A stretch of 64,000 bases of DNA from Bispira polyomma (taxonomy: Eukaryota): contig OZ287748.1 in NCBI GenBank assembly GCA_965649765.1, positions 68,324,001-68,388,000 on the forward strand, in the 5' to 3' direction. A program made the position numbers and the translations under genes. The notes under the pieces are model-generated. The model saw only the letters and a program-made list of their open reading frames with translations, made no database searches and was not told the DNA's origin. Position 1 is the stretch's first letter, and each line of letters starts with the position of its first letter. Positions 3,107 through 63,954 of this stretch are shown here, piece by piece.

Positions 3107-3216
3107 CATTATCATCCAGGCGATTTGGATCATTTCTTGGAAACACTTCATGTTTGCAGTTGTGTGAGAAATAAGGCATAATAGGAGAGCCATCGAACAC
3201 AGTGAGACCATAAGGA
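3107..3216 (-). CDS. Unknown gene A, exon 3 (SPYGLTVFDGSPIMPYFSHNCKHEVFPRNDPNRLDDNG)
   Basis: Acceptor catttcag|T at 3216 inside the terminal minisatellite unit; donor AATG|gtatgt at 3107; 110 nt, phase 2 in and phase 1 out, fitting both neighbours. Confidence 0.6.
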
Positions 3217-3665
3217 CTGAAATGATGTATGTTGTAAATATAGTCATCAAACATACTGAGGCCATAAGGACTAAAACGATGTCTGTTGTAAATATAGTCA
3301 TCTAACACAGTGAGGCCATAAGGACTGAAATGATGTATGTTGTAAATATAGTCATCAAACACAGTGAGACCATAAGGACTGAAATGATGTATGTTGTAAA
3401 TATAGTCATCAAACATACTGAGGCCATAAGGACTAAAATGATGTATGTTTTAAATATAGTCATCAAACACAGTGAGACCATAAGGACTGAAATGACGTAT
3501 GTTGTAAATGTAGTCATCAAACACAGTGCGACCATAAGGACTGAAATGATGTATGTTGTAAATATAGTCATCAAACATACTGAGGCCATAAGGACTAAAA
3601 TGATGTATATTTTAAATATAGTCTTCAAACACAGTGAGGCCATAAGGACTGAAATGATATATGTG
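3196..3665. repeat. 54-bp minisatellite, ~8.7 copies, with 162-bp (3-unit) higher-order structure
   Basis: Unit aacacagtgagaccataaggactgaaatgatgtatgttgtaaatatagtcatca starts at 3196, 3250, 3304, 3358, 3412, 3466, 3520, 3574, 3628; units 2, 5, 8 share the variant catactgaggcc...gactaaaa. Confidence 0.97.
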
Positions 3666-3687
3666 GATATGTCGTGACAGAAACTCT

Positions 3688-3767
3688 TATCTGACAAGAT
3701 TTGAAATTCTGTCGACAGAGACTCCAATTGGAATATCTGTTGACAGAATTTCAAATCTTGTCAGATA
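3688..3767. repeat. 80-bp near-perfect palindrome centred on ccaattgg
   Basis: tatctgacaagatttgaaattctgtcgacagagactccaa / ttggaatatctgttgacagaatttcaaatcttgtcagata: 40-bp arms, 3 mismatches; partial extra arm at ~3781-3818. Confidence 0.9.
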
Positions 3768-4396
3768 TATTTGACATAAATCCCAATTGGAATCTCTGTC
3801 AACAGAAATTCAAATCTTCAGTAACATTAAAATTAATAATAACAATAGTTACTTATCCAGGGTAACATTATACAATACACTGCTTATTTAAATATTGTTT
3901 AATGGAACAATCACTGGCCATATATCATGGCAGTTACGTGATAGATATATTATGTTAATGGGGACAGCTGCACTCTTTTATATAATAACATAAAACCGCT
4001 TTCGTCAGTTACCAACTTCCATATAAGGATATTAACTAACTCTTACCTTGACTCGACAAGAACCGCCAACATACATTACCTTGTATATACACATATATAA
4101 CATTTCATTTGGAAGTCGGGTCCCCAAATCATAAGCAAATGGTTAGAATTCGGGTCCCACTTTAAAATGACATGAATACATTATTTTTTATTTGAAGAAA
4201 ATAAATAGATGTCGGGCCCTTGATATATATATAGCATACACTAACTGGGTAATATATGTATGCCAAATCTTAACCTCCTGCTAAAGTTTACCTAATTACC
4301 CAAGCTCATCAGCCACTGACTTAAAATCCAAGGAAGAAATAACACTTTTCTTTTTTGAAGTTGATTAAAGGTTATTTATGCATTCCAGAGTATTCC

Positions 4397-4608
4397 AGAG
4401 TAGGCCATGAGGACTGAAATTATGTACAAGTATAAAAAATATAGTCATCACACAGAGTGAGGGCATATGGACTGAAAATATGTACAGGTATATATAAATA
4501 TAGTCATCACACAGAGTAAGGCGATATAGCCTGAAATTATGTATGTTGTAAACATAGTCATCAAACACAGTGAGGCCATATAGACTTAAATTATGTATGT
4601 TGTAAATA
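4397..4608. repeat. Diverged second cluster (~4 copies) of the 54-bp minisatellite
   Basis: Recurring ggactgaaattatgta...aaatatagtcatcacacagagt units homologous to 3196-3665. Confidence 0.88.
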
Positions 4609-5226: not shown

Positions 5227-5797
5227 AAAAAACAACATAAAATTAATAAAAGAGTGAAATATAGATATATAAAACTAAAGAAGTAAATACTATCGTTACA
5301 TGCTATGTATAATCCTATTGACAATTAAGACAACAGAAACAAATGGGACTATTAGTTTTGAGTATTTAAGATGTTGTGTGAGCATTCCTGTGCCTTAAAC
5401 TTAAGTTTTCCTGTTCCTTTTCTACTCCAATATCTCCTCTAATCTATAAAACAAGCCTTATCTGAAATATAAATTAGTTGTTCCAATATGGTCAAAACTA
5501 ATACTATTCATTGTATCTTGACAAAACTAAAATTACTAATAAATTGAAAAACTTACTTCAATCCAACCTTGAAACACGGTGGCAATCTGCAATACATGGG
5601 TGCACAAATTCAGGAATTTTAAATATATCTCTTTGTTTTCTCCATTATTTTGTACAAATTTTACTGTCAAAACAAGCTTTTCTTGCTGTGTTCAAGTACC
5701 AAAGGTAAAAGTACTGAAGGAACTTGGATAGTTATTTGGAATAAATATCACTGCAACCTCTTTGGTCATATTGTGATGGCCAGATTTTACAGGTGGA

Positions 5798-8360: not shown

Positions 8361-8869
8361 CTGGAACACAAAAACAAGAATAGCCTTTGAAAAAAGATCG
8401 CAATATGAGCTTTAATATGCTTTTTTGTTTCCAAAAAATTCATTCAAGTATTATTCGAGTTTAAAGTAGGAACAAAACGGGTAAGATTACTTGTTAAATG
8501 GATAAACTGTGTACATTTTAAGTTACTGTCCACTAAGCTGTCCACCGTCTACTAAGCTGTCCACCCCCTGAAAATTCTGTACAATAAAGAGGTGATTTTC
8601 AACTACTAGAATAAAATATAAAAGCTCTGCTCATTTTAAATTCAAATGTTCAACTGTTAGATTGTTTGCATGAGAATTCCTGACCATTCTGACGACCACC
8701 ATATTATTATTAAGTGAATATGGAATTTCACACATAAAATGCATGTCTTCTGTTCAAAATATACTTATTAGGATTTCCAAAATAGTTCACATTGGAGATT
8801 ATTTCAGAGAATTGGTTTTTAAAGCCACACATATATCTTCTATCAGATATAAAAGCAATCTCTACAAAC

Positions 8870-9036
8870 CCAATAAATGGTATAGTGATTCTCTGTTTAT
8901 GTTCCGGAGAGTGTAAATCACTGGAGACATATGTAGGTGAAATCTTCCTCGTTGGTCCCTCATTCCTCACTCGAACTTTACCACCAGCTCTTGTTGATTT
9001 TGGCGTCAGCGGCGGAAGTAGCAAGTTGGTAGCCAT
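8870..9036 (-). CDS. Unknown gene A, exon 1 (MATNLLLPPLTPKSTRAGG...ITIPFIG)
   Basis: ATG at 9036 (aatATGG context) in a CpG-containing block; donor ATTGG|gtttgt, phase 2. Four-exon total 1767 nt = 588 aa + stop. Confidence 0.6.
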
Positions 9037-11590
9037 ATTCGGGAGGCTGTAAGCTACATTGATAATAGAAAATAATCTTGGTGATTGCTATATCCTACAT
9101 TTTCACACTGATTTTGAGTCTTATCACCAATCAGGGTATTTAATATGTGTGTTCCCTCGTAGGAAACACATCGTAAAGCTTTCCATAGAGATTGGTCAAT
9201 TCTTCTACGTCACTGTATATTGATAACGTTGTGCCACATCTATAATTTACAGTATTGTGTACGTCACGAACTCTGGGGTTATTTGCAGGATTTTTTAGTG
9301 CGAGAAATAACTATGTACTATTTGATAAATCATAGTTGTGGATACACATCCAAAAATAACTCATGATATTGAGCCATTTTATTTACTTACTATATTCAAA
9401 GTGTAATACATTGGAAAGATAACCAATCACTTTAAAATACAGTTTTGAAAAAGCGATGTGTATTAGCCTTGAAATCCCAATTTGCCAATATAGAAACGTC
9501 AACGGAAAATACGTGTTGATATAAATTAGCCCCATTATGGAAATGTGATTCAAAGAGAAATCCCATTTTCCTGTTAATATAATCAAACCAAGCGAATTAG
9601 TCACTATTGTTATTAAACTTTTCATCAGATTACAGAATTTATTAGGAAAACAGTTGTGATTTGTGTGATGTTTTAAGGTTTTTAGTTGCGTACATGGACT
9701 TTACATTGGGCACTCTTTTAATTTACTTAGCCAGGAGGTTAATAGCGTTTTCACTCAATTGGGGTATTTTATATCTACTATATATCACCTATTATTTCAT
9801 ACATTTTACTGACTTTTTCGGTCACCTTACTTAAAAGGAGCTAGAACCTTAACCTAATGTTAAACTTAGTTAAAGGTAACCTTCAAGTGAATATAACTTA
9901 AACTTAATGTCCACACTTAAACTTAGTTAAAGGTAACATTAGAGTAAACAATGTTAACTTAACAGTATAAAATACCATTAAACGTAATTTAAGTTAACCG
10001 TAACTGAGTACGGTGGCCTTAAACTCAGTTTGTAAATAGCTTACTATTGATAACAACGGTTATAATCTACAAGTAGATCTGTAATTTAGTTCAAGTGATG
10101 ATTACCTAACTAAGGAATAGATATGCACTAACAGGTATATGAACTAGCTAGATTGTTTGCCAAAGTCCAAGCACACAAACAAATGTGTGTCATATTATTT
10201 TATGTGTAAATATATATTAAGATCGAACTGCTAAAGTTTGCAACGTAGCTGTAATTTAATTTGGAATTGAATCATTTATTTGGCAGATTGATTGATAGAG
10301 CTTTACCAAGATGATTAGGATACCGGGGTAAGCATTGGTATAATTGTTTAATTAATTAATCAGGATTTGTTTTTCATGAGAAGTTCAATCCAATTTGGCT
10401 ACTATTGTAACAATAGTTTCATCACTTGTAGTGTTTTTTTCACATAGCATTTTTTTTAAATATGTATGATTTAATTGTTGCAACAAGTAGTCAGGTTTAA
10501 ACAGATGTACAGCTATTTTCATTAAAATTTGTGCATTTATAAAAACTGAAGAAAAATAGTATACTACTTATTTATTTTGGTAAATTAACCTTTCGAAAGA
10601 TTATTTCAGGACAAATGTTGCTTGTTTGCTTACTTAATAAAATTAATTCAATGAAACAACTATATTACCTTACTCACTGAGACATGTTTTAGCAAAATGT
10701 TGTATTTGTGTGGGCTCTCCACAGTAATGTGTTATGTGGTTAACAATTTGTTTGTGGCTTTGGGAATCATAGATATTGGAATGTTTTCAATATTTTTTTC
10801 AAATGAGTCCCACACCTTGATCAGGGACTTTCCAATAAAATATGATTTCTCCACAAATATACATTTGAAAAATTTCGAAACAAGCTTCAAGTAATTCCAG
10901 TCAAGTTTGATAAATACCAATAGTCCAAAAGAAGTTTAAGAGGAGGGCCAGAAGCAAACATAAGGAGAACAAGATATATAATCTATAGTAGATTTAGGTG
11001 TCCTGGTGTTCTCACCTCAGTCGCAGCAAGATATACTCGCCATCAAAATACTAAAAACTAAAATAAAGAGTAATAATAATATCTGATTCAAGGGAGGGAT
11101 GGAGGGTGTTAAAAAGCATGTCTTGTTACCCCAACTCCCTGAATGCAGGTGAAGGAACTCTTACATATAATCACACCACACCCAAGGTGTACAGACAGCC
11201 ACACATATAGCCATTCATAACCATTCATCTTATCATTGTTTGATACGTGTGTCTGGTAGTCAGGGGGAGTGAAGTCTTGTGACCCCACAACCAGCTGGGG
11301 AGGAGTAGTTTAACATTTTGTATTGAGAAAAGAGGCCAGGTATGAGACCTGTACATAACCTTGCACTATTTATACCTAGACTGACACTGATTGCTCAACC
11401 CTCAGTTCATATTCATTCGAAAACAAACTTTATCTTTGTAAATTTATAGCATGATAGTATGTTTCAGTACTTGTTTGTTTCACTAGATCATTACATAAAC
11501 AAATATGAAATACTTATTTTTTATTTACCCCAAAAAAATATTTGTACAACTTTTTTTTTGTTTGTGACTCAGATTATCAGCCAGGACACA

Positions 11591-11795
11591 GTTTATTGGT
11601 TCAGCTGTGGTGGTGATAAGCTTGGTTTTCATCCTCATTATTGGACTAGTAGCCGGTCTGGCCACCCCGGCACTCGAAAATGGCGGAAGCCCGGATCCAC
11701 AACCAGGACCAATTGTGAATGTGACCTCATTGATTAAAAGTACGGCACAGATCAATCATCTGGAGTTCTTAAATCACATTGCTGCCCATTTGTAG
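11591..11795 (+). CDS. Putative exon of a small secreted or membrane-anchored protein
   Basis: Frame FIGSAVVVISLVFILIIGLVAGLATPALENGGSPDPQPGPIVNVTSLIK...: long hydrophobic helix, Pro/Gly linker, NVT sequon; GC-richer than flanks; polypyrimidine acceptor at ~11571. Start exon unresolved. Confidence 0.4.
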
Positions 11796-14068: not shown

Positions 14069-14198
14069 TTTTTTTTCGTCAGTTTCTAAGATGTCCAGCA
14101 ACTAAGCTAAAAATATGTTTTTGTTTACACATACCATCAAATAAGAAAAACGTAAAAGGGATTGCAACTCATAATAAGCTGTACAACCAACAGATGAA

Positions 14199-14723
14199 AT
14201 GTGTAGATTAATGAAATTTATCTTTTTTTTAATTTTACTCCAAATATTCCTGTTATTTGCGGCATTTTTCGCGGCTATAGCGTCAGAAAATAGCCCCGAG
14301 TACTACAACACAGAATCAGTACATATTCCCTCCAGGAAACTGTTGAAGAAAGGCGATAGCGACAAAGACTACAAATGGTACGATGATGATAGTGATGTCA
14401 CAGGAAACTCCGAAGACGAGCCGAAAGTTCCGACCTTGCACCGAGTGAACAAGAAGCTCTGGGAAAAACGGAAGCTTGTTTTGGCGGGCATTATCTTGGG
14501 AATTCCCCTGAGTTTCCTTATCGAATTCCTTATTGCTCTCTGCTACAATGCCTTGCTGAATTGCGGTTTCTCGGCGTATGTCAGATGTATGGAGCCAATA
14601 TATTGTATAATGAATTGGGATGTGGGTTATCTGCATATCTGCCAAACGTACTGGCTAATGGGGTTGGACTTTCCTACCTACGACCACTATAAGGAACAGA
14701 AAGATGCATACACAAACGGTTAA
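14199..14723 (+). CDS. Intronless 174-aa orphan protein: signal peptide, acidic segment, TM helix, Cys/aromatic-rich C-terminus
   Basis: Uninterrupted ORF, GC/CpG-rich in very AT-rich flanks; MKFIFFLILLQIFLLFAAFFAAIAS leader; LVLAGIILGIPLSFLIEFLIALCY TM segment. Confidence 0.75.
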   Translation: MCRLMKFIFFLILLQIFLLFAAFFAAIASENSPEYYNTESVHIPSRKLLKKGDSDKDYKWYDDDSDVTGNSEDEPKVPTLHRVNKKLWEKRKLVLAGIILGIPLSFLIEFLIALCYNALLNCGFSAYVRCMEPIYCIMNWDVGYLHICQTYWLMGLDFPTYDHYKEQKDAYTNG

Positions 14724-18763: not shown

Positions 18764-21700
18764 TAGTCCTTAGGCTATTTCTCAGAAGAGGCTTAAAAAA
18801 AATTTCGCGGCCAAATCTCCCATATTAGGTTTATTGGTCTTATTTTGTAGATTTTAATATCAGGAAAAAGATTAGACCAGGTAACCCTGTGAGAAAGTGT
18901 CCAAAATATGAAAAAAAAAGTAAAATTCAAGATGGCCGCCACGTCAACAGATGAAATCAAATTTTCATCATATCTCAACTTCTAGACCAGCTAGAAACTT
19001 ACTTTTTGTATCTATACCTATGTTTTTGGGGTCAAGGAATCTAATAAAGTACATATTAATAATATTTATCCAACATTTATAGAATAAATCCACAATGGAC
19101 AACATTTGAGTGGAAAAAAGTACACTGATTTTCCTCTGTCATGTTCAAAAGTATGTCAAGTTCAGTTTTTCATCTTTCGGATACAACTATAAAAAAATTG
19201 TTTTTTATTTTAAATGAAAATAGGATAATTTTTGTACTTTTTGGGTGATACACAAGACTTTTAAAGCAGTCAAACATGTATAAAAATGAAATATATATAG
19301 TTAATGAGGCAAGACTTAATTCTTAATTCTCTGCACATCCGCACTGTATGCCTGACTTAGCTCAAATGATTTGAATGTCATTTGTTAATGGGCAATACAT
19401 CACTTGCGTCTTCATAACTGGGCAGGTTATATACACACCATAATGATTATGAATACAAAATCTTCAGTTCAGTCTTTATCAATAGTGACTCATCAGAGGT
19501 GAGTATTTTTAAATATTTTATTGTTAAGTTAAGCTATTTCAATTCATAGAATGAGCTAAGACAGAGCTCTGCTTGTTTTTCAATCAGAAGATTTACTAAA
19601 ATTGTAGGACATATTCCAACACATGTCTAAACTGAATCATTTTAAATATATATGTGAAGTGGACCCAAAAGCAATATTTACATATTTAGTTCCACGCAAG
19701 TTTTAAATTATTCACTATCAAGAGGACCATAAAATGTTGAGATTAATTGGATGACTCAGATAAAATGAACATCTTGAATATAATTGTTTTGAATGTGACA
19801 AATGACACTCAGTTAATCCTGGATTAATTTCTAGGGCTGGAACCGTTCAAATGCTGCAGAGTAGTGAAGATGTTAGTCTTCCCCATAGTGTTGGGTACCT
19901 GCCAGTTATCAACAAGTCACCAAATGAGCTTGCCACAGTTTTTACAGTCCTCTCCAATGCAATGGATGTGGTTGATGCTGTCGACTATGGACCATCCACT
20001 CAAGATGCTATACCCAAACCATCTGTGATAGTGACAGTGGATCAGGCTATATATGCCAAAGCAGCAGAGGTGGTTAATAATACATGTCTCAAAGATGACC
20101 TTGAGCGTATACCTTTTCATACTGGTTTAAAACACATTGATGTCATTGGCTGTAGCTATGGGAGTGCGGGTTTGCGTGACATTCTTGTCGAAGCTGGAAT
20201 TGTAGCTGAAGGCAGTGTTAATCAAGTTCTCAATTGTCGTCACTACAATTGTGCCATAAATGCTCTGAAGACAGTGCTTGAAGCTATGTGGCATCTACGT
20301 TTGGATGCCTATCTGAGATAGAGGGATGATAAAGAATTGCCAGCATTCCAGGACTTGTTGTGGCGTGTATCACAATTTTGGCATGATCTGTCACGTGTTC
20401 CATTAGAAGAGCTGGTTGCTTCTGCAGAATTTGCCAGCTTAAAGAAGAAGTTTGGCTGCTTCACCATGTCATAGTTTCTCAAATCAGCGTATGGAAGGTA
20501 ATGCATTCAGCAGAATTGCCCATGATCAAACTATAGAGGTAACCATCAACAGAGAAACAAAGACAAGTGGTGGTCAGATAGGAAAGACTCTACGTCACAA
20601 GAGTGTTAACCAGTGGGTCTGGACAGCTGCTGACAAGGCCCAGTATTATCTCTGTAGGAAGCAGCTAAGTGGTATGAATGAGGCCGGCTTTGAGACACAC
20701 AAAGATTGCTCACTGGCACGAGTAACTCATGATGAACAAGTTGTATAAAAGGTCATGAAAACAGTTTCAAATCTTATTGACCCTTACACTCACCAGGAAG
20801 TAATCACCCATGTTGCCTCAGGAAAACATGCTACACTGGAAGTAGAGGCAGATCTCCTATCTGCTAGGCAAGTAGGGCTGAAACAAGTTTACACATTTGC
20901 TACTGACAGGCTTAGCATAGGTGGTGAAATTGGCTTCCATAATCCTTTACCAAAGTTAAGACTGAAAACATTTGCACTATTAAGTCCAAGAAGGTCACAA
21001 AGAGAGATTCCTAGCAAGAAACGACTGCTGTATTTGCACATCTGTATGACGGTTGACGGAGAAGTCAGGTGAGCCATAACGAATTGATGTCATATGAACT
21101 CACCAGTGTACCCAGATCTCTGGCAGACAAATCTGATCTCCTTCACATACTCAGGGATGAGGCTGCAGATGCGCCACTTCCATTATTGGCTAATATAACA
21201 CACATAGTAGATGTCATGGCTGTACTTCAGTCACTGAAACCAAATGCCCCATATGACCATCTGACACTGCAGGTATTCAAGTCGATGTTAAAAGGAATGG
21301 GGATCACACACATCAAGTTGATCTGTTTTCCAATCATGAAGAAGCCGATACAAGCCTTCTCCTTCATGCCAAACATGCTAGCTAAGAAAGTGATGCACCA
21401 ATCCTCTCAGATCACCAGAGACAGATGTCCTTGTGTTGGCTGTTTTCTTGTGTATTACGGAAAAATTACTATTGTTGTTTAGAGTACAAAAAAATGAAAC
21501 ATGGTCATATATCAATGTGACAAGTATTGCTGACAGTCTAGGACAGAGTGTGTGTAAAGGTCTACTTGGTATGCATGCCTTTAGTGGTTGTGACTTCGCA
21601 AGTAGATTTGCTGGACCTGGGAAAACAAAAGTAGTGACACTTGCAATGGAAAACTATGAATTTTGCCAGGCCATGAAATCCCTAGGTGAGAACTTTGATC

Positions 21701-23031
21701 CAGATGCTGAAACATTAAAACAGGCAGAGAAGGCTATATGTTACCTGTATAATTCAGCACATTGTACCAACACCAATGATGTGCGTAGTGAGAAATGGAA
21801 TAGGCAAACCAACGAAATCACAAAGCTGCCTCCATGCCATGATAGTGCCATTCTGCACATCAGAAAAGCAAACTATCAAGCTACAATCCGGGAGAGATGT
21901 TTGAAAAGTCAAATGGAAATTCCTTCCCCACATGGCCATGGATGGATTATAAATGGAAGTGACATATCCATTTTGTGGATGTCCCAAGCACGTGCGCCAA
22001 AGAAAGTGCTACACATAGTGAAGTGTTTTTGCAAGTCTGCCACTCCTTGTAGTAGAAAGAAATGTCATTGTCGACAAAAGGGATACCCTTGTATGCTAGT
22101 CTGTATGTGTAATGATGATTGCTGTAATACTAATGACTTTGCCACAAATGATGAAATTGATTGAGCAAATGAATATGGGAACTATTTAATCCCCAGAGTA
22201 AATTATTATTCAAGAGTGTTGTGTAATATGTAAGAGAATGCCAGTATATGTTAAACTGTACTAGTTATTTATGACATGACATGACAGAAATTTGTTATAA
22301 TATTAAGAATATAGGTCAAATGGAAGAAATTTTCCCATAAGGATATTGGATGGTATTATGTCAATACACTGATGAATATATCTACAGTAGTCAGATTTGT
22401 GGTACTATTAGTTTGTGAGATGTGCTTAATAACTAAAATTCTTACTTTCAATTTAACCAACTGGCATAATAGATGCACATATTTTATATATTAAGCATGA
22501 ATCTACTGACACATCTTCATCTGCAACAAAGTATTAACTAATGGCCTATGGATTGATAATACCTTGAATCTATTAATTCTTTTGACAGAATATAATGATT
22601 GCATGGCACAAACTCGAACGGCACTGAACATGACATGCCTTTAAACATGACACAGGAAAATCAGTGTACTTTTTTCTACTTAAATGTTGTCCATTGTGGA
22701 TTTATTCTATAAATGTTGGGTAAATATTATTAATATGTACTTTATTGTACTTGACTTGATTCCTTGACCCCAAAAAACATAGGTATAGATACAAAAAGTA
22801 AGTTTCTAGCTGGTCTAGAAGTTGAGATATGATGAAAATTGGATTTCATCTGTTGACATGGCGTCCATCTTGAATTTTACGTTTTTTTTTTATATTTCGG
22901 ACACTTTGACACAGGGTTACCTGGTCTAATATTTTTCCTGATATAAAAATCTACAAAATAAGACCAAAAAACCTTATATGGGAGAGTTGGCCACGAATTT
23001 TTTTTTTTTTTCTAAAATAGCCTAAGGACTA
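18764..23031 (+). mobile_element. Degenerate Academ-superfamily DNA transposon (XPG-domain type), 4.27 kb
   Basis: TIRs ~400 bp (18764-~19166 vs ~22623-23031) starting TAGTCCTTAGGCTATTT and ending AAATAGCCTAAGGACTA; AAA on both flanks (3-bp TSD); internal transposase plus XPG-like nuclease plus Cys-rich finger, the Academ architecture. Confidence 0.85.
19834..22164 (+). pseudogene. Frameshifted Academ transposase: DDE-region, XPG/FEN1-like nuclease, C-terminal Cys-rich zinc finger
   Basis: Five tandem ORF pieces with motifs TVDQAIYAKA, HYNCA, DQTIEVTINR, HEEAD (21335-21349, in a frame absent from the ORF track), SPETDV, HAFSGCD..S.F.G.GK, LPP...H..KANYQ, PSPHGHGW and CFCK...C....CHC....YPC...CMC...CCN; stops and frameshifts between pieces. 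Confidence 0.85.
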
Positions 23032-50685: not shown

Positions 50686-51596
50686 ATCCTGAAAATATGT
50701 AATGTTACTTTCCTCAAACAGGATATATGTGATATCAGGAAGAGGCATGTATTTTGTATATTGTCATTTATCACATATATAGTCATAATATTTTTTATTT
50801 GTATTATTGTGAACATTGTTTGTATAATATAGCATTAATTGTTACATTTATGATATTGAAGACGAAACTCGTATACATTTCGTATATATTTCTACATTTT
50901 TAGCGCTATATCAAGGATAGAACAAAACAATAACATTATCAAAGAAGAAACACATTTTATTAATTAGTTACAACTCTCTAATATACACCGTCTACATTTA
51001 TCATATAAGAAACACCTGTTTTTAAAATTGTAAACATTCGTCAAAATCTATTGTTTAGATTTATAATAATAAAAAAATTTATAATTTTTTTTATTTCAGA
51101 CATATAGATAAGCACATTCTATAAATTAAAATTATTAAACAAACAAACAAAAGCAAGAAATAAGTAAAGAATATTATTATGTTAATCCAAAACTTAAAAC
51201 CTACTTATTCGACAAGGCTTTACCACCTTAGCCCTAAATTCACCCGGCGTCTCCATGGTGCTGATCCATGCTTGTCTAACAAAAATGCAAATTGAATAAG
51301 GATACTGTCCTGCGCCTTAGAATCCCCTAAGAAGTAGAGATTAAGCGCTATAAAAATTAGATTGAATTAGATTATGTTACATATTTAATTATAAATGACT
51401 ATTATCAAAGAAGAAACACACGTTTCAAATTTTTGTACAGGTCTCTAAAATCCACTGCTTACATAGTGTTATAATGGACTTACATAAAGCGGACTTTACC
51501 TTCCTTCAAACTGCCTATCTTCAAGGCTATTCTTGATGTTCTTTTTTTACAGCTATCTCTAGACCATCCCTGTGTACACACACATAGACTACCAAT

Positions 51597-51800
51597 ATGG
51601 TGAACCCCACAGAAGTCGTGGGTATAGCTGGGGCCATGTTGGGGTTGACTGTCTGTGTGGTTTTACTAGGGGTCTACTGGTTCTTTCTGTGGAGGAAGAG
51701 GGAGCCCAAATCTCCAGACTACAAAGCAGTGGGGGACTTCAAGCCCAGTGAAGTCTTCTCTTGGGACTCCAGTGCTAGTATTACCAAAAGTCTACAGGAG
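51597..51800 (+). CDS. Synaptotagmin-family protein, coding exon 1 (N-terminal TM helix)
   Basis: Acceptor ttttttacag| at 51552, ATG 51597, TM VVGIAGAMLGLTVCVVLLGVYWFFLW followed by RKR; donor GAG|gtaagc, phase 0. Confidence 0.88.
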
Positions 51801-51930
51801 GTAAGCAGATAATGAATTATGTGATGGGAAAATTCCAAAATCCTGATGAAAAAGCTACCAAATAACACAGATTCCAGTTATTCCAGTCTGTAAACCACTC
51901 TGCTCCACTTGTCAATGCAAAGCACTTTAA

Positions 51931-52596
51931 TGCCCTGGTCCCACCGGATGTACATTGGGTTAGGTAAGTCACGCAAAGGGCCGTGTAAATAGTTGATGTA
52001 AAATGTCAAGCAAAACTTGAATTAGCAATTTTCTCCATGTTGAAGGCATTAACAGACGTTTAAATTCATGTATTAGTACGTCAAAAAGCTGTAAAGTCTC
52101 GCAGGGCATGCATAAGTTAACGTCAAAGTATGTATTGAAACCCCCGTATGACAGGTACGAGTATGCCAATACACGTTGTAGGCCGTCATTTTCTACATTT
52201 ATGTACGTTTAAGTATTTTAAACCACGTCAAGTATGTTAAACCATGTTGACCCACGCAAATTGTTGCAACGTCACGCGAAAGTTCAGGTTTCAGTACGTC
52301 ATACTTTTACATCTCTTGCGTGTCCAAAATTCGAAGTATGTTAAACCACGTCAAGTATGTTAAACCACGTGGACCCACGCAAATTGTTGCAATGTCACGC
52401 GAAAGTTCACGTTTCAGTACGTCATACTTTTACATCTCTCAAATTTCAAACGGTTTAAAATTATAAATTTCTTGCATCTCATCTCTCACGCCAGATTATG
52501 TATGCTATATTACGTCAGCTCCCACAAATACCATGCAAAACCTACGCAAATTAATTTTAAACGTCTCCTAACGTGATGGCTGGTGGGATCAGGACT
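51931..52596. mobile_element. PIF/Harbinger-type MITE (666 bp) in a synaptotagmin intron
   Basis: TIR tgccctggtcccacc / ggtgggatcaggact; TAA on both flanks; internal ~105-bp duplication (~52212-52316 and ~52334-52438). Confidence 0.78.
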
Positions 52597-53380
52597 TAAG
52601 AAGGGACGCAGGCACACGCAGGGAATACTATCCAGAGAAAGATGATACTTCTATTTAACTGATCATCCACTATTGCTATTTATTCATAAAATAACTTTCT
52701 TAATTGCTGTCCCTATGTTATGATAGTCTCCCAGTTGAGCTTAGATAACTAGAAAACTTTTTAGGTTAAGGAGATAACTTAAAACCCATCTCTTTAAACT
52801 TCATCACCTTAATTTCCTCCCGGTACAGCCCCATATCTTTGTTTACAACCTTGACTTGACTGTTTCAAAATGCACAATACAAGTACATCACATATCTTTT
52901 CATAATATATATGTCTATGGTAAAATTCTACAAAGCAGGTGTAGAAATATATGTCTAAATGTTCATTGTACAATTTTCCTGTGATGCATCAATAATAAAA
53001 TGTACAACTACAAAGTGTAAATTCTGCAATAAATATCTATAATGTTACACTTAATAGTAGTTATGCTTTTTCTCTTCATAGTTATACCAGCAATTTTTAT
53101 AATTATACTTATTAGGCAATACTGAATATTTATGACTCCATTTAAGAGGTTCAAATAGCTTTTATATATCTTAACATGAGACATAATACTGTATCTATAG
53201 TCAAATCCTACTAAGCAAATACATTTGGAAACTTGTGAAACATATGTTTGAATGTTTGACTGTGTTGTACTAATGAAAATGTATACATTTTGCCCATACA
53301 GCTACCATATTCTGTAATATATCTCTATAATACCATTAATTTTTTACCTAGTTAACACTAAATTTTCTGGGGGTATTTAG

Positions 53381-53642
53381 GAACATCATAATGTACAACC
53401 TAAGTCCACCTATGGTAAATCCTTGCTGAACTACAAGCACTTATATGGTGATGAGGCCAGTCTGTCTAGTACCACCAGCAGTAGTACCCGTAGCAGTACC
53501 CTGAGTAGTCTTAAAGACATCGGAAGTATCCGTGATGGGGGATCCATCAGGAGCAAGTCATCTCGCTGTAGAACGCTGAGTGAAATGAGCGAGTCAAGTT
53601 CAGCCAGTCAGGACAGCGCCACTTTTGACACAGCTTCTATTG
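53381..53642 (+). CDS. Synaptotagmin-family protein, coding exon 2 (Ser-rich linker)
   Basis: tatttag|GAA...ATTG|gtgagt; 262 nt, phase 0 to 1, open frame. Confidence 0.85.
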
Positions 53643-54991
53643 GTGAGTAAAGAACAAGAATTGTCTTTTTTTAAACATCAGCGCCCAGGGTGACTGACAC
53701 CCCTTAGTTTGGTCCAAAGTGCATGAAATAATAGATACTCATTCTGCACTATTGGGATGGGAACCCGTGTTCCACTAGTATATATACCTTCCTCAGTGCA
53801 CGTTTTCGGGCTGTGCATGATAATCGCCTGATAATCTAAATCTGGCACCAATTAATGAAGGTCCTACATATTTCCAGCATGGTGGTGCCCTTTACACAGT
53901 AAACACCTCCCTATGGCGAACACCTTTTTCGTGGTCATATTTTGATACTTGTGAATTTGTACAGTACCTGGGTCCCATGAGTGTGTTCTATATTGAGGTT
54001 TTAATATATGTGTTATATATTTTCCTGCCACTCTGGTCAAGAGAGTAAACATGTTGTGTTTAGGATCAGATCACATGGGTTCAATACCAATCTAGGATTT
54101 CCCCCTACAGTCAGATAAATGCTTCAATAAAAAAAGGTTATTTTTATCCATGATTTTTTAAAAAAAATGCACATACATGGTGATGTCATGTATGAAATCT
54201 TCTGAGCCTTGTAAAATATAAAAAACTGCTACCCAAAACACCATCTGTGAGAAAAGACCACATAAGACCGTCAAAGGCCAAAAAATGTTTTCTCTGTCCA
54301 GTATTGTCTAACTTTGGAATTTTGTCACTTCCTAACTGATAACCTTACTTGGCTTGTGAACCGGCCTTTTAAATACAGCACCAGGTTACAAACCAAAATC
54401 AAATATGCATACAGACATTGCAATATAAATCGAGATATTAAGCAGCCAGCTGTGTATATTCGAGCGTGCACTATGTCATGTTTGATGGGGCTGCTTGCTT
54501 TGTGAGGAGTTATGTAATTCCTCACGTGTGTACTACCTGAAACTACATAACACTGTGTAGTCTTTTTTTCACAACATGTATGTGTATATATTATACGTTT
54601 GCTATACTGATGAATAAATAGTTACTTACATTTCTAGAAACCTTTATCAATTCCAGTCACAGTGTAATCCCATTAAGTTGAATATTAAGGAACCATACAA
54701 AATTGTTCTACTTAACAGTAATTCTACTTAACAGGGTAAATTTTATTCAAAAATATAGCAATGGGACCTTATAATAACTTTTACTTAACAGATGATTCAA
54801 ATCATCACTCCTACTTATAGGTAGGTGCTTCACTGTACAACGTCTTTTAATGAAACCTGTATAGCAACTTCGTGAATTAACAAAGTTAAAATTTAGAAAA
54901 ACCATTGATTTTGTATGGGGCATTTTTATATGTACATGAAAGTAACATGATTAATATGTCCCCTGTCATTGGTAATAATCATCTCTCTTCT

Positions 54992-55226
54992 AGGAGGTTA
55001 TGTTTTTCCAGGTTATGTTTGTTTGTTTGTTTGTCACGAGATTGCAAAAAAAACAAAAAAAAAAAAAAAACACTACTGCACAGATACACTCTACCTTTTC
55101 TGGAGTAAATTCCACTTAGGCCATGTGACAATCTAGCAAATTTTGAAATAGCGCTGTGAACAAGAGTAGATCCAGACGTGTTTTCACCTTTGGTGCAGGC
55201 ATCTGCTCTACTGACTGCTTTTCTAG
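54992..55226 (+). mobile_element. Short interspersed repeat, possibly Helitron/Helentron-derived
   Basis: aggttatgtttt head, (gttt)n tract and ...gctttctagt end; similar heads near 40816, 41147 and 49052. Class assignment is inference. Confidence 0.4.
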
Positions 55227-56429
55227 TTTCTTATGAAATATAACAATCCAAATTTTTTTAAAAAGACAGTAAATGTACCACAATCCCAAATCTGCAGATG
55301 TGGACTATCATATGACTGCAGTTTTGTTACAGTTTTAAGTTGAGGGAATCATACATCACATCAAAGGTTTCTTCTAACTACCAATCTAGTTGTGTCCCCC
55401 CCAAAAAACAACACCAAACAAAGACTTGTGGGCCGTTTCTGTCAGCAGAAATGCTTGTTTATGGAGGGTTGTACATCTCCATTACAGTTCTACTAAGGAC
55501 CATTCAAGGGTTGGTCAACTGTTCCCTTTGATCGTCATACTTTTTATATGCTTGGTTTGAGTAACAGACAAAACACAATCTAATAAGTGTAGCGTCAGTG
55601 AGATCAAATAGCATCAAACACAAAACTGATTTATTTGATTGTATTATCAACAAGAACACTCACATTTTTTTTTATTTTGGATATCTCTATGCTTTTACTT
55701 AATTGGAACAAAGAGACTATGTTTGCACATTTCTGATGCTATTTTTTTTTTATTAACTAAAAACTGGCATGAAAGATATCATAATTCACAAACACATAGT
55801 ATTTTTAGGAACAACGTGGGCGAAAAACGTTTTTTTTTTTCATTTTGACAGTAGTACTAATCAAGATTTACGAATGCCATTTTCAAATAAATATCAATGT
55901 TATACATTTACATAATAAAATATTCTTGTGACACTGAATGATATAAATGTATCCACACTAAGTGTCAAATAGAAAAAAAAGGGTACACTTTTTTCAGTTC
56001 ACCACAATCTGACTACTGAACAATAATTTTGATAGAATACGACATGGCGCAATATCAAGCAATGGCCGATAATACTAAGCTGACATCCCTTAGCTACGCC
56101 ACCGCTTACATATCAGGAAGTAAAAATGGGTACCCTTTTTTAACTGTATATATCGGATGAAAAGAAGCACAATGTCAGAATGTGCTAAAAGGAAGCTTAG
56201 GCTAATTCTCCACTAACCAGTAACCCGTTGCTTTGAGAAAACTTGATCAGCCAATCAAGACAAATCTTTGTGCCAGGTAATAGTAGAAAGATAGTTTAAC
56301 CATGATAAAAAAAACTTTAACTCTCTTTATAGAACCCATGTTTTTTTTAATTGATTTGGATTCTATGTAATGTGACACATCCTTGGTCAAATTGTGATGG
56401 CTAGATGTATTGGTGGAGGAAAGTAGTAC

Positions 56430-56646
56430 TACACGGGCGGTCGCCATGTTGGCCTGGTCATAATGTTGTCCGTTGCATTTTTAACAAACTTACAGACGGA
56501 AATAAATATTGAAAGCACATGCTACTTTAAGTCTATGAATTAAAGTACAGAATACTATATTTTATTTTTGAAAAATCTACGTTTTATATATAGAATTGTG
56601 CATCAACCAATATTGTGACCCGACCACTACTGTGACCGCCCATGTA
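56430..56646. mobile_element. MITE (~215 bp) with imperfect 39-bp TIRs, TA-bounded
   Basis: tacacgggcggtcgccatgttggcctggtcataatgttg vs caatattgtgacccgaccactactgtgaccgcccatgta. Confidence 0.7.
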
Positions 56647-57887
56647 TTTGTGGTGCAAACCACCAACCTACCATAAAAACCTTACAAACTGGTCGCCATT
56701 AGGGAAGCACTAGGATTCAATCCTACTGTCCCTACAGATAAGAGACTAGTGATATTAAAGCAGATTCTTTTAACCAAAAAATGCCTAATAATCGGTAAAA
56801 TATAAAGTACCTATATAACACTAATTTTGTTTTAATACAGACTTTGGATCCAAAACGGGTCAGATTACTTGTTAAATGGAAAAAAAATCATATTTAAAGT
56901 TACTATCTAATATGGCTGTCCTGTCCACTAAGCTGTCCACCGTTGTAAATATGGAGAGCCTTCATAGATTATTTGGAAGCAATCAACCCGTCCAAACTGA
57001 GGGTTATCAGATTTGGATATAGCATACAGTGGCAATATCAACGTCAGTGTATTTCACACTATGCGCTTGTGTTTCTTTTAAAAGACCACTCTTGTGACTG
57101 CCGATTTCTGTGAAAAAAAGGGCTAACTGTCGTGAATGTAGTTTTTATATTGATATTTATAGCCTGTGTTGTAATGGAGGTTGGTTAGGGATATATATGA
57201 CCTAATAAGCTCTAAGATTACACAATGTACTAAAAGATATCATTAGAACAGAAATTAAATAGTTTTGTCCTTATTTTGAACATTTTAGTTATTGCTAATA
57301 TAAATTCTGAGAGCCTGAATCTCTTAATATAAGTACCTGAAAAATTCTTTATTCCCGGTCCAAACAAACACTTGCCTGGTACTAATAATGAGAATGGATA
57401 TGGGTTTAAGAATAAAATATATCATATGGAGATGAATTGCATCCGTTGGAAGATGCCTTTTGCATCAATAAACTGTGTTGAAAAATAAAAAATACAATAC
57501 AATAAAATTTTTGCATACCGAAAACTGATCCATCGATGGTAACTCGATAGAGTGCATACCTCTCCACCAATGTGGCAAAAAGTAAAGAAAAAAAATCATG
57601 AATCTGCTCAAACATTTAATTATCTCCATCTCTCTATCAAATATCATGTAAATAAGTGAAGCCATTTTCTTGTAATCTGTGTAACAAACAAACACAGGTA
57701 AAAGCATAAATCACACACCTTTTAAAAACCATTAAATTTAAAGGCAGAACCCGGTATAGCTAAGTGAGTACTAAGTTCTTACAATGGAATTTAATGAGTA
57801 TATACCCCCCTTTTTCCCCCAAAGCTACTCCAAAGTTATTTATCCAATAGTCTTCGCACTGAAGCAAGGATTACAGGGTTTAGGGAA

Positions 57888-58065
57888 CAAAAGCTCAAAA
57901 CACATCTGTATCAGCTCGCTTTTCTGCCTAAACATTTGTCTGTTGGTCACGACTGAACTCTGATCACGAACCTTTTTTCCTTTGGACTATTTTTTTGCAT
58001 ACTGATTTGGTTGTGTGCCACAGAGGATGGCAGGTCATCAATTGTGGCACTATAGAAGTAAATAT
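57888..58065 (+). mobile_element. L2-like LINE 3' tail fragment
   Basis: aaagctcaaaacacatctgtatcagct...ggtcacgactgaa.tctgatcacgaacc shared with ~46640-46722. Confidence 0.75.
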
Positions 58066-58079
58066 CATTAACATTGCCA

Positions 58080-58337
58080 GGGGCCGCGGTGGCCTAGTTG
58101 CTGGCAAGCAATGCGCTTCACAATCACTGGTCTCTCACTTATGGGCAGCGTGAGTTCGAATCCCGTCGATGCCTATGTGGAAAAGGTGGTAGTTCCTCAC
58201 TGTGGGCCGCTGGTTTCAGTGCAGAATCTTGATCAACTGTATGCAGTGTTTCCTCCAGCATTTCAAACTACCCGTCCCAATATAACCTAAACAGGTATTA
58301 TAGTAGACGTTAAATATCCAAATTCCCCCCAAAAAAA
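58080..58337 (+). mobile_element. Full-length tRNA-derived SINE
   Basis: Highly similar over its whole length to 48422-48675; degenerate TSD attaacattgcca / attaacataacca. Confidence 0.92.
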
Positions 58338-58765
58338 TTTATTAACATAACCATGTAGAAGAACTATTAAGTAAATATATTATGCAAAACCAAATTTTTT
58401 ACAAAGGATGGGATAACTGGAAATTACTGAGTAAAGAATTTTAATTAATGGAAAAAATAGCCAACCAAAAATAGTAGACTCAATATCTCTCTTTTATCTT
58501 TGTCTGTGATTTTTATATTACAACATTGTATTAAAAAAACCTTATCTCCTTTTGGATATGCTGTCTCAAGATGAACTTTGAGAGGTCCATGTCTGCCGTT
58601 TAAGCTCATACCATTCTGATTTGCTATCCCGTGGCCGAGGTTTGCACTTTACCGAATGCTCTTGTTTAGAATTACTTAACCATACTCATGTTTTGTAGGA
58701 GGTGCATCCTTTACTATCTACTCTGTTTTTTATGTACATATGTATTTTATAACATTATGTTCCAG

Positions 58766-58900
58766 GTATCAAGCCCGAGCTTTACACACGTAAAGATACA
58801 GTACTCAGACAGGAATCCAGCTTTGCCAGCCTGGGCAGGCTTCACCTGAGGCTGAAGTATGACTTTCGTACATCTGACCTCATTGTTCATCTTATTGAAG
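58766..58900 (+). CDS. Synaptotagmin-family protein, coding exon 3 (start of C2A); not in the ORF track
   Basis: ttccag|GT ATC AAG CCC GAG CTT TAC: GIKPELY...LGRLHLRLKYDFRTSDLIVHLIE; donor GAAG|gtaaga; 135 nt, phase 1-1. Confidence 0.93.
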
Positions 58901-59782
58901 GTAAGAAGAATCTACACTGACACCTGTCTGAAGGGTTAATTCAAAGGTAATTTGTTACAGTTGTATTGAACCCTGTTATGTTTCTGCCAAAAAGAACAGC
59001 ATACATTACTGACAGGGGGTTACTACAAACGACACATAACTGTATTAAGATAATATGGTTAATGTTTTAATCGTTTGTCAAAAAATAATAATTCATTATT
59101 CTAGTACTTTGTATTTCAGTGAAAGGTTTATTTTACGGAAAGTTAGGGTAACTTTGATAAAGCCAGTTGATAAGGTCAGGCAATATTGAGCCCGACTTTC
59201 AATATGTGCTAAAGTGGGTGTTACCAACAAGTATACATGATGCAGTATACAAAAGTGGGGTAAATAAACATGTAAATATAGTATTGGTGAGTTAGTGGGG
59301 AAGATACTCACTTTGAAATGCAAAAGAACTTGGATCAATCCTAAGCCTGGGACTGGCGGTCCTCTGTCCTTCAATCCTATCGTTAATCTCAGGTTAAAGG
59401 CATGTTGACCAATACAAATTAGAATAAGATCGTATTCACAAGTCAATTCTTAATTAAAAATTTTTAATTTCTTTGCCAAGACTTTTGAATAAAATTGTAG
59501 GTACACATGTTTTATGATAATCAAGTGACGATTGCTTAGAATACTCTCATCTTCAGAAAATTAAAATACTAAGAATTTAGTGAATGTCAATATTCTTATA
59601 CAATGTACTTAAAATTAATCTTAGAAATCATTAATTTCCTAAAAATAGTTCTAAGTACAAGAATCACTCTAAGAATGATTCCTAATTACAACTAATTACA
59701 GTCTTTAAGAAACAGCTCAAAACATATGTAGATCACCTTGCTTTTTTACCTGAATATTCATCTGGGTTTTTTTTTATCTTAG

Positions 59783-60096
59783 CCCAAGACCTGAATTCCT
59801 GTGACCCGGCCTCGACCTTCGCTGACCCCTTTGTAAAGCTGCAGCTGGAACCCCCTTTGGACAACAAGGTGCGCCAATCGTCCATCAAGAGGCTGGCCAG
59901 ACACCCGGTGTTCGATGAATACTTTAAGTTCCCTGTAGGCTTTGAAGAACTGAGGGACAAAGTACTGACCTTGATGGTGTTTGACTTTGACAAGTACTCA
60001 CACAGTGAGCTGGTGGGTGAGGTCAAGGTTGACTTCTGTACCACTGACGTCAGCACTACCGTGGAGGTGTGGTGTGATGTAGAACCGGCTAGTGAG
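59783..60096 (+). CDS. Synaptotagmin-family protein, coding exon 4 (C2A body)
   Basis: tcttag|CC CAA GAC: AQDL...DPFVK...HPVFDEYFKF...VFDFDKYSHSELVGEV...W; donor GAG|gtatgt. Confidence 0.96.
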
Positions 60097-61004
60097 GTAT
60101 GTCCAGTTTGGGTTGCAAGTTTACTACATGTTGTGTCATATCACGATGGGGAGTTTAATTTACAGTGTCTGACCTACTGTTTTAAGTCAATATGACATGC
60201 ATATGCAATAAGAAGACTGTGATTGGGCATATTAGTTTATTATATTATGTTACATCTTCCCACTATTAACAGACTATATATGTATTTAAAGGTTAAGGCC
60301 ACCTTAAATTGATGCTTTAGGTTACTGGCATAAGTTTAAATTTATGCCTTACTTTAAGATCAGTTTAATAATTACTTGCTTTAAGGTAATCTTTTACATA
60401 TAACTTTACTTTAATTAGGGTGGTTTTAACATTTTGACAAAGAGTACTTATTAGTTTTTTATAGTGCATAAAAATAGTATTTCAATTTATTTGATGAAAT
60501 AAAAGCACTGAACCCCAACTAAGACCCTTCCAGTTAGTTTTGTTAGTTCAGATTTTGTGGTATATCACAATAGGCTAGTCATAAAACAGGGTAGTTGGTT
60601 AAGGTTTTTTTGCTCTAGAAACTACTTTGCCTTCAGCAAGTCTAGTGGCAAATTTCCTAAATACTTACCAGGGTCGGGAGATTTAACTCCATGATGGCAG
60701 AGATGGAAATACCACCAAAGCCATGATGATGTATGATGGTTGTTTTGCTGTCCAGTCTATGAAAAAGTATAACTAGGCCATGACTAAATGCATTAGCACA
60801 TTAGGGGATTTTTATCAATTTTGCGCATTATAAATGTTTATTATTATTAGATTATTATTAAATATTGAAGCGGGTCCAGGTAAAAGGGCGGATCCAGGGA
60901 ATCATTTCACCTTTTGGTAGTGTGGTACTTTAATGGAGGTATGTGCTAGTGCCTTTGTAGTTAATATACAGTCATATTGTACATAGTTCCTTCTGATTTC
61001 TTAG

Positions 61005-61125
61005 AATATAGACAAAGGTGGAGAACTCCTGATTTCACTGAGTTACCTGCCCACTGCAGAAAGGCTGACAATCGTTATTATGAAGGCAAGGAATTTGAGA
61101 CAGCCTCGAGCAGCCAGCAAGATAG
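61005..61125 (+). CDS. Synaptotagmin-family protein, coding exon 5 (start of C2B); not in the ORF track
   Basis: ttcttag|AAT: NIDKGGELLISLSYLPTAERLTIVIMKARNLRQPRAASKI; donor ATAG|gtaggt; 121 nt. Confidence 0.95.
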
Positions 61126-61994
61126 GTAGGTCAAATATCACAGACTAAAACGTATGGCAGAGTATGACAAATAACTTTTAGAAAGATATGGTATATATTT
61201 CAAAGCTTTTGTCTCTCATCAGCAACCTTAAGAGGGGAAAGAGCCTTTCTGTTGCCTCAGTAAATCCAACCAAGAGGGCTGAATCTAGAGTTTTCTCTAT
61301 TGCTGCTCCTACTTTATTGAATAGTCTCTCCGTTTAGCTTTAGATAACTTGAAACACTTTCTTGGTTCAGGAAAAAAAATATATCTTTTTAAACTCGCTT
61401 ATTCCCCTTTACTTCCATCCCTGTACACCCCCACACCCTTCATTACGACCGTGCCTATGTTTTAGAGTCTTGATTGATCAACCTATTCTGGTGTGTGCTT
61501 CAGAAGCTATGCATGACCTCCCCTATATATATACATATATATATATATCACCGTTTTGGACTTGAAGTCAAAGGGACAACATTTACACAAATCTGTATGT
61601 GGAGGGACCATATTTTAGCTTTTGTAATAATTTAAATTTTTAATTGAGATAATTTAGACGTTTTAGCTAACATACCAAAAGGGTCACATTGTTTATTTTC
61701 AAAAATAGTAATGGCAATTACTAGGTTAGTGTAACACAGCTTGAACTATAGCAGAACTTTAAGACATGTTACACTGAAAAAATGGGTACATTTTTTTCAT
61801 TAGGAATCCTTAACTTTAGCTAGATACTCACAGATAAACTTGGACAGTGACAATTTATTCAAAAAGGAATATTTAAATTGGTAATGGTCATTGTCCCAAT
61901 AATTTGGCCAGGTATTAGACTGTAAATTGTAAATACTGACAAAGACTGACAGACACCTGACATTAAGTCCCAATTACAAATAATTATAGGCTTC

Positions 61995-62165
61995 ACAGAA
62001 AAGCTCTGTATCGACTCTTTTTCCGCCTTAACATTCGTCTACCAGTTACGACTAAACTCTAATCACGAACCATTCCTGCTAATGGACTATTATTTTGCAT
62101 ATTGACCGAGCTATGCACCACAGAAGATGCCTGGTCATCGATTGTGCCACTATAGAAGTAAAACA
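61995..62165 (+). mobile_element. L2-like LINE 3' tail fragment (third copy)
   Basis: acgactaaactctaatcacgaacc...tggactat...cactatagaagtaaa shared with 57888-58065. Confidence 0.7.
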
Positions 62166-63649
62166 TTTACATACTTTCACATACATTTTGACTTTATGCA
62201 ATTTTTGCTTTGCAGTTTTTCAGTCCTAAAAAACCAAAATCTCAGTTTCTTGCTGGGAATCAATTGTTTGTAGAATAGGCTACAGGCTGAGTGCTAATGT
62301 TTTGATTACAGTGAACTCATTTAAATTAAACATCAATTGGCTATGTGCAATACTTCTGCTTAAGTTAGTTTTTGCACCGTTTTTGGCAGCATGGCTAGTA
62401 TGCTTCCTGAGGAAGCTGAGACTGAACAATTGGTTGACAAGTGGAAGAACCCAGTAATAATGTCAAATTATATTACATAACAGTGACATTTATAAATGCG
62501 CTATATCAAAATAATAATAATAATTATACTTATTATAATTATGCATGTATTATTATTTATCAGTGTAGAATAACCTATAGCACACCCCACTTATAATCCT
62601 TATATACCCCGCAGAAAGGTCATGCGTATTTTAGTGGAAAATCAAGTATGACACAATAATAGAATTAATCTTCTTAGCCAATTCACCCAGTCTATTTGCT
62701 AAAGGGAGTTTTGTCAGTTTCAATATACAGATATATGAGGTCTTCACAGATTGTGGGTTAGATTACATGAACAAGGAGTTTTCCTTTTGTGTCACATTAA
62801 CTTACTTTCTGTCTAATTTGATCCTATATATTCTCTTAAGAAACTCTTAAGTTCATACTCAGACTCAATTCAAGTGAAGGCTATCTGTAACTTCTGTTTA
62901 TGGAAATAACCCACACTTGTGACCATTCATTTTAATGGAGTTTTCAAGGCTGAATTCAAATATGCAGCCAGATTGCATTTATTTTTCCTCCCACCAGAAA
63001 TGGAGAAACTTTTGAATTAAGCTTAAGTTGCAGAGAATAAGGACATTGGGGTCTGTCCATCCACTCACTAAATCCGGAGGCAATATTTGAGAGAACAAGA
63101 AAAATTGTATATTCTACTTTATGGTGTAAAACAATTGCTTTCCATTTGTTTTTGCTTTCTCTAGCTATGTTATAAATGATAACTATTTGTATCTACAAAA
63201 ATAACATTTTGTTTAGAAATGATACACCTTTATTCAAGTAAACACAAATATAAATACCTAGAACTGAAAATTCGATTTTAAACCTTCACAGTTTCATTGT
63301 GGTGTGAAACTAGATTCTGCATTCTCCCACAAATTGCACCTGGTATGTAACTATGGTAAACAGGTTTTGTTAAACTTTTCTAATTACGAGATGTAACTAT
63401 GCTAATTTGTATATACGGTACATATATATATATGTATCTGTGAATCGTACTGACATAAAACCCTTCACAATTAATGATATAACCCACAGTGCAATATCTA
63501 ACTACCTCTAACTATATTATGTGTATACTGTTATAAGTGTTAATTTTACAATTGCCATAAATTTACGATTGCTTTGTTAAAAAAAACATCAATTTCTTTG
63601 GGAAATTATTTTCACCATAATTCTGTTCTATTCTCTCAATCTCACACAG

Positions 63650-63954
63650 ATCCTGTGGCTCGCATCACACTATTGGTGGAAGGAAAGCCAATCAAGCGTA
63701 AGAAGACATCCGTGCACAAATCTGCCATCAACCCGGTGTGGAACGAAGCCTTTGTCTTCAATGTCCCGCCCCACATTCTGGATAGCACCTCTCTGGATAT
63801 TTCCATCTCTGACCGTGACCTGCTGGGGCCGGGAGGAGGGTTGGGGACTTGTCTGATAGGGTCGGGTCGCCCCGGACTCGAGGGCCAGCACTGGGCGGAA
63901 ATGAAGAACAATGTCAGAAAGGCTGTTGCCAAGTGGCAACCACTGCACGTTTGA
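63650..63954 (+). CDS. Synaptotagmin-family protein, coding exon 6 (C2B body, stop)
   Basis: cacacag|AT CCT: DPVARI...KRKKTSV...NPVWNEAFVF...HW.EM....RKAVAKWQPL, typical synaptotagmin C2B end. Six exons total 1341 nt = 446 aa + stop. Confidence 0.96.

Follow-up and report, generated by a model that had tools for sequence, protein, structure and literature searches.

A mirage of tandem intron-exon boundary copies, four of them in frame and stop-free, before a conserved exon of an animal gene

A tandem array of 54-bp units lies at the start of a conserved exon on the minus strand of the window, the 64,000-nt stretch of Bispira polyomma DNA analyzed in this study (Table 1). The array is a mirage, in which an intron-exon boundary has been duplicated in tandem, and it sits in a conserved animal gene; the acceptor at 3216 is likely used, so that the upstream copies would be removed together with the intron. 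It is best read as a tolerated by-product, an ordinary member of a known, little-studied class of repeats, and a regulated splicing switch is unlikely.

Table 1. Features of the array, the neighbouring repeats, and the host gene (positions within the window)
Feature	Position	Strand	Details
Last coding exon	16-121	minus	matches the P0006 C-terminus at 18 of 34 residues (pairwise E 6e-12)
Large coding exon	1128-2535	minus	1408 nt; 51% identity to P0001, E 1e-129; distant animal relatives
Coding exon, authentic	3107-3216	minus	110 nt, phase 2 to phase 1; donor GT at 3106
Young mirage array	3191-3664	minus	period 54, 8.8 copies, 89% matches, 0% indels, score 773 (TRF)
AG acceptors of the young array	3648, 3594, 3540, 3486, 3432, 3378, 3324, 3270, 3216	minus	TTTCAG or TTTTAG, then TCC; 54 nt apart
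In-frame TAA, unit 5	3450-3452	minus	TAC to TAA; 344 nt before the exon junction
In-frame TAA, unit 8	3612-3614	minus	base change as in unit 5, one 162-bp period away; 506 nt before the next junction
Dispersed repeat element	3667-3882		internal inverted repeat at 3688-3767; cuts the first young unit; contig loose ends at 3667
Further high-copy repeat fragments	3879-4395		depth in the thousands; strong GT donor-like site at 4046
Older array part, degenerate	4396-4597	minus	3.6 units with about 80% identity; AGs at 4584, 4530, 4471, and 4413
Predicted 30-nt exon	5557-5586	minus	phase 2 at both ends; GTAAGT donor at 5556; ordinary splice scores
Predicted exon with candidate start codon	7046-7112	minus	candidate start codon at 7053 (CAAAATG context); prediction only

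Each 54-bp unit consisted of approximately 28 nt of the intron end, closing with TTTCAG or TTTTAG, followed by approximately 26 nt of the start of the next exon. An initial annotation of this DNA had described the units in this way, and the description was confirmed by TRF and the acceptor positions. The tandem units span the exon-intron boundary, the downstream exon has a homologue (P0006), and the AG splice signal is retained in the copies; it was present at the unit end in all nine young and all four old units, and additional AGs were found within the young array at 3579, 3417, 3301, 3282, and 3255. The unit was locus-specific and derived from the host gene rather than from a dispersed satellite, as the search against its own genome gave at least two matches, a lower bound from one scored candidate, both in the same intron. 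Young units, the truncated first one excepted, differed from each other by 1-9 of 54 nt in a nested pattern, and a 162-bp higher-order period reached 95% compared with 89% for the 54-bp monomer (TRF), indicating concerted evolution within the cluster.

The k-mer depth of contigs was approximately twofold higher in the array than in its flanks (17.8/8.83 in run X1 and 15.5/7.04 in run X3), and the mean 31-mer multiplicity of the assembly in the array was 2.2; the array copy number is therefore consistent between the two, although the X1 and X3 runs, possibly those from which the assembly was made, are not independent support. The contigs of the three DNA runs behaved as genomic DNA. No other copy-number allele was seen in these runs, which is a weak observation because it covers at most two samples and contigs only, with no contig spanning the array. 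An origin of the array as an assembly artefact is extremely unlikely: the absence of a spanning contig among those listed would be compatible with it, but the nested unit differences, the agreement of k-mer depth with the assembled multiplicity, and the presence of a diverged second part of the array all argue against it.

This second, older part is separated from the young part by approximately 730 bp of high-copy repeats, and its AGs are spaced by 54, 59, and 58 nt with a broken frame. The initial annotation was exact in its description of the young units but missed the older part at 4396-4597, the element that cuts the array at 3667, and the extra AGs. Copies of this element were found on many contigs at 86-93% identity (40 of 689 candidates scored), and no target-site duplication was seen for the window copy. 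The element is abundant and non-coding, and other copies extend past 3882, indicating that the window copy is truncated on its far side. The array may have started from a 54-bp stretch, 28 nt of it intronic and 26 nt exonic, that slippage or unequal crossing-over duplicated and that then grew into the intron. Insertions of mobile elements would later have split this one original array, the distal part would have decayed out of frame, and the exon-proximal part would have been re-expanded in 162-bp (three-unit) steps and homogenised. Separately, the old-array acceptors 4471 and 4413 scored 6.6 and 7.0 bits compared with 3.3 for 3216, and the donor-like site at 4046 and the old-array acceptors could delimit a stop-containing cryptic exon (4046-4471, minus strand).

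Judged by its sequence, the exon at 3216-3107 is part of a real, conserved animal gene. The five exons in Table 1 form a model of 553 aa with no internal stop, in which exon order and phases are consistent and the donor upstream of the array has phase 2 as required. The exon matched the N-terminus of P0006, a protein of Ptychodera flava, at 10 of 20 residues (pairwise E 4e-5), whereas its first eight codons and the two upstream exons are model-based, with no homologue support. The 3216 site is the last usable acceptor because the next AG, at 3145, falls inside the conserved motif. Searches among proteins of near length matched P0001 and P0006 only, and of nine matches in a search for distant relatives, P0003 and P0008 were repeat-driven and were excluded from the alignment. 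The middle of the host protein was poorly conserved, and the predicted pLDDT of P0006 was 0.36. The profile had no match among solved structures, where P0006 gave only unrelated matches, mostly to designed filaments. An Atlas feature score of 0.80 for P0006 pointed, as a lead only, to a possible TEX33/CIMIP4-like ciliary protein, and this identity found no support, with no Pfam match for the exons or P0006 and the only PF15400 match of the genome on contig C6. That match elsewhere in the genome (C6:49278710-49279045, E 1e-11) belongs to the TEX33 family.

With respect to the 5' end of the gene, the symmetric 30-nt exon is open in two phases and could be skipped without a frameshift. An open frame at 8731-9087 (minus strand), whose ATG is at 9036, could be an alternative first exon; a promoter-like stretch richer in CpG lies immediately upstream, and only weak donors were found there in the needed phase. 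Translation could also start at an ATG at 3179 inside the exon, so that the array would precede the coding region and its frame would be irrelevant. In favour of this start, the N-terminus of P0006, the only full-length named relative, lies just a few residues ahead of the motif that it has in common with the exon, and the two upstream exons lack homologue support; however, P0006 may be N-terminally incomplete, and the upstream exons have ordinary splice scores, a phase-2 fit, and the CAAAATG start context, which make the internal start very unlikely.

Additionally, other features were noted in the window. A synaptotagmin-like gene at 51588-63951 (plus strand) encodes a hydrophobic stretch near the N-terminus and a pair of C2 domains (Pfam E 2.5e-16 and 6.7e-14). 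At 19806-22161 (plus), where the DNA is richer in GC, several long open frames are apparently pieces of a single broken gene, which is likely a decayed mobile element, and the one frame tested had no Pfam match. Open frames with signal-like and transmembrane-like stretches at 11568-11792 and 14178-14720 (plus) appear to be small membrane-protein genes, and one of them, when tested, gave no family above the cut-off.

The phase-2 frame was open from the acceptors 3432, 3378, 3324, 3270, and 3216 to the donor at 3106, in agreement with the initial annotation, which had also placed in-frame TAA codons in units 5 and 8. Accordingly, the four upstream copies at 3432 to 3270 keep an uninterrupted reading frame, and the rungs beyond them are closed by TAA codons at 3452 and 3614; from their shared base change, we infer that the two TAA codons are a single event that was copied. 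In the phase of the array, 350 of the 494 acceptor-like 28-mers of the window were stop-free, which together with a one-in-three chance of a suitable length gives an in-frame open unit in approximately 24% of cases by chance. Across the array, two stops were found in the frame of the gene and one in each of the two non-coding frames. The 14 distinct unit variants comprised 5 synonymous, 8 non-synonymous, and 1 nonsense changes, with a probability of at least 5 synonymous changes of 0.17 under neutrality, so that protein constraint, sought as a synonymous excess without nonsense changes, was not detected among the units, with low power. Synonymous changes were mildly in excess in the frame of the gene (5 of 14, compared with 1 and 3 in the other frames), which counts to some degree against the use of 3216. 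Because of the chance rate, the fewer stops in the two non-coding frames, and the neutral-like variants, the open frame is little special. It is explicable without selection, and its coincidence with a unit length divisible by three is likely accidental. These points and the frameshifted older part support the reading in which 3216 is used.

A scoring matrix was derived from 127 acceptors in the same genome and applied to the rungs. The 3216 site reached 3.3 bits, at the 7th percentile of these acceptors, and 3324, 3378, and 3540 were identical to it over the 28 nt scored, while 3270, 3432, 3486, and 3648 reached 1.5, 1.3, 4.1, and 3.9 bits, respectively. Since several acceptors are identical in sequence, site strength cannot single out a rung, and the identity of 3324, 3378, and 3540 to a weak 3216 makes leakage to upstream rungs plausible. 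No clear branch-point consensus was found for the genome, and the rungs were therefore not ranked by branch point. In general, exon definition favours the site nearest to the donor and the unique exon body. With near-identical and weak acceptors, exon definition would decide the choice, through pairing with the donor at 3106 and through the unique exon sequence that adjoins only the last copy, and upstream rungs would be used in at most a small share of transcripts.

The nearest rival, 3270, is among the weakest acceptors and has a new AG 12 nt upstream. One and two additional units would give exons of 164 and 218 nt, and 31% and 7.5% of 93 sampled internal exons were as long, whereas rungs 3378 and 3432 would give exons of 272 and 326 nt, and none of the 93 reached 272 nt. 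The weakness of 3270 and the sizes of the two longest exons thus favour 3216; on the other side stand the acceptors identical to a weak 3216, the ordinary sizes of the 164- and 218-nt exons, and the 1408-nt exon within the same gene. It is rather unlikely, though less so than the other alternatives considered here, that the ladder sees substantial use without regulation or that an upstream rung is the main acceptor, which would add one to four 18-residue units near the N-terminus by exonisation of the mirage in a tolerant, likely disordered protein. Four open, in-frame rungs, several acceptors identical to the authentic weak one, and the poorly conserved middle of the protein, with the low pLDDT of P0006, would all permit this. 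However, the units showed no protein-level constraint, the exon plus one unit matched none of three candidates among longer proteins (weak evidence), and published mirages splice normally in the available portions of the reports (PMC3087553, PMC3902484).

To place the locus within its genome, boundaries were called automatically in Ras-family (121 of 150) and ubiquitin-conjugating-enzyme (46 of 49) matches, leaving out full-length or intronless ones, and 166 of the matches had DNA. On the intron side, a copy on the same strand lay no more than 600 nt away from 9 of the 127 acceptors and 9 of the 132 donors (18/259), compared with 0 of 100 in the shuffled control; mirages were thus present at approximately 7% of the sampled conserved exon boundaries, with no preference for acceptors. 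A few of the 18 were weak single copies, and three more that were seen by eye were missed by the automatic set. Several were long arrays, such as one with 12.6 units of 45 bp and another with 16 of 30 bp, and examples of up to 16 units lie at C8:48381513, C3:20472079, C10:33541117, C2:93372974, and C7:32167117 (among loci L024-L147). Enrichment at boundaries depended on the control chosen, the controls being resampled from the same loci and hence non-independent: no significant enrichment was detected relative to flank positions with any outward copy (18/259 vs 86/1597, P=0.31), whereas it was approximately fourfold relative to end-of-array positions (18/259 vs 28/1597, P=1.6e-5). A stricter ungapped test gave 13/259 boundaries vs 133/3240 controls.

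The period was a multiple of three in 8 of the 18 other mirages, near the chance third, and none of the 18 had an in-frame stop-free copy (1.9 expected, P=0.12), since every in-frame copy met a stop. The base rate, its absence from the shuffled control, and the share of periods divisible by three support the use of 3216 at the present locus, which has many counterparts and is the kind of open, in-frame mirage to be expected from chance on occasion. The lack of another open case makes the locus unusual and is a point against this reading. Elsewhere in the genome, the use of upstream sites may be so frequent that selection keeps them prone to NMD. Orthologous loci lacking the array were not found among 160 metagenome stretches in a first scan, and 2 of 49 candidates in a second scan (L006 and L007) were rejected as chance matches in bacterial DNA. 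A further repeat was seen in P0003, a predicted glycoside hydrolase of Mytilus edulis (CAG2188861.1), which has many imperfect copies of an exon-like stretch at residues of about 400-930. From its sequence, this region looks like a boundary array annotated as coding, and gene prediction calls for caution, as such arrays can be annotated as coding repeats.

The initial annotation had further proposed that the number of repeats and the choice of acceptor could adjust the length of the protein or provoke NMD, as a candidate for an undescribed mechanism. The duplicated acceptor/exon boundary holds, and in-frame rungs are possible on paper, but the claim of an undescribed mechanism is unsupported, because the structure is that of the amphioxus mirage, already described and, in the available portions of the reports, free of splicing disturbance (PMC3087553, PMC3902484). 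The geometry would permit such a switch, with TAA codons 344 and 506 nt ahead of the next junction, open in-frame ladders were absent from the 18 other mirages, and an intronic VNTR affects the splicing of human ABCA7 according to the accessible part of the report (PMC5954066). Nevertheless, the switch is highly improbable: both stops represent one base change separated by one 162-bp period, the older array part has decayed, mirages are common at housekeeping exons, near-identical acceptors leave little sequence for a regulated choice, and, as weak evidence, the contigs of three DNA runs from at most two samples gave no other copy-number allele.

It is also quite unlikely, if somewhat less so, that the mirage is becoming an exon. 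Identical in-frame acceptors would then compete and produce a 54-nt transcript ladder with one to four His/Tyr-rich 18-residue units, and the copy number of an allele would set the mixture of long isoforms and NMD targets. If this were true, frame-closed mirages at approximately 7% of conserved boundaries would show real leakage and be kept NMD-prone by selection, and copy-number-dependent use of rungs would be a route from a junk repeat to new protein sequence. Under the preferred use of 3216 as well, the locus provides a natural test of how the spliceosome chooses among identical 3' splice sites, as four wrong choices would escape NMD and be countable in RNA.

Several human loci are comparable in part, and the statements on them follow the portions of the reports available. 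The CBS 844ins68 allele is likewise a duplicated intron-exon junction, in which splicing strongly prefers the distal site and removes the duplicate (PMC2630376); unlike the present array, it is a single 68-bp duplication whose length is not a multiple of three, and it has been tested in RNA. The 37-bp VNTR in intron 7 of F7 is also a minisatellite at an exon-intron boundary, with a first unit that spans the boundary and identical pseudo-sites that are functional but silent (PMC1557585), although it lies on the donor side, has a frame-shifting unit, and was dissected experimentally. In both boundary duplications, the site next to the exon body is reported to be used (PMC1557585, PMC2630376), and these precedents, as well as those in amphioxus, support the use of 3216. 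On the other hand, boundary minisatellites in human paralogues often occur with alternative transcripts, which can retain the repeat (PMC2812944), and this counts against it; those cases are mostly new introns inside repeated exons of recent duplicates, whereas here an acceptor ladder precedes a single-copy exon.

Our literature search found mirage reports for amphioxus only. The host genome in this study, of 1.035 Gb with approximately 34% GC, belongs to another animal, and the amphioxus genome differs from it in size and GC content. The sample suggests that approximately 7% of conserved exon boundaries carry mirages in a genome that does not appear lancelet-like. In the available portions of the amphioxus reports, BflGb6 carries a mirage of an intron 3' end and exon start with 6 and 3 copies on two haplotypes, and these mirages leave ordinary splicing undisturbed (Ebner et al. 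2010, PMC3087553); PGBD5 has mirage units of 60 and 108 bp, and no aberrant mRNA arises from the mirages of Adh and troponin C (PMC3902484). Here, in contrast to the amphioxus mirages, four copies are in frame and stop-free, and mobile elements have split the array into an old and a young part. As far as these portions of the reports extend, the present array otherwise resembles the mirages of Adh3, the globins BflGb6/BflGb9, troponin C, and PGBD5 in its tandem units of intron end and exon start, as in BflGb6, its retained AG, its position in the intron, a unit within the range of 10-160 bp, and its higher-order homogenisation, and, like PGBD5, it has a unit length that is a multiple of three.
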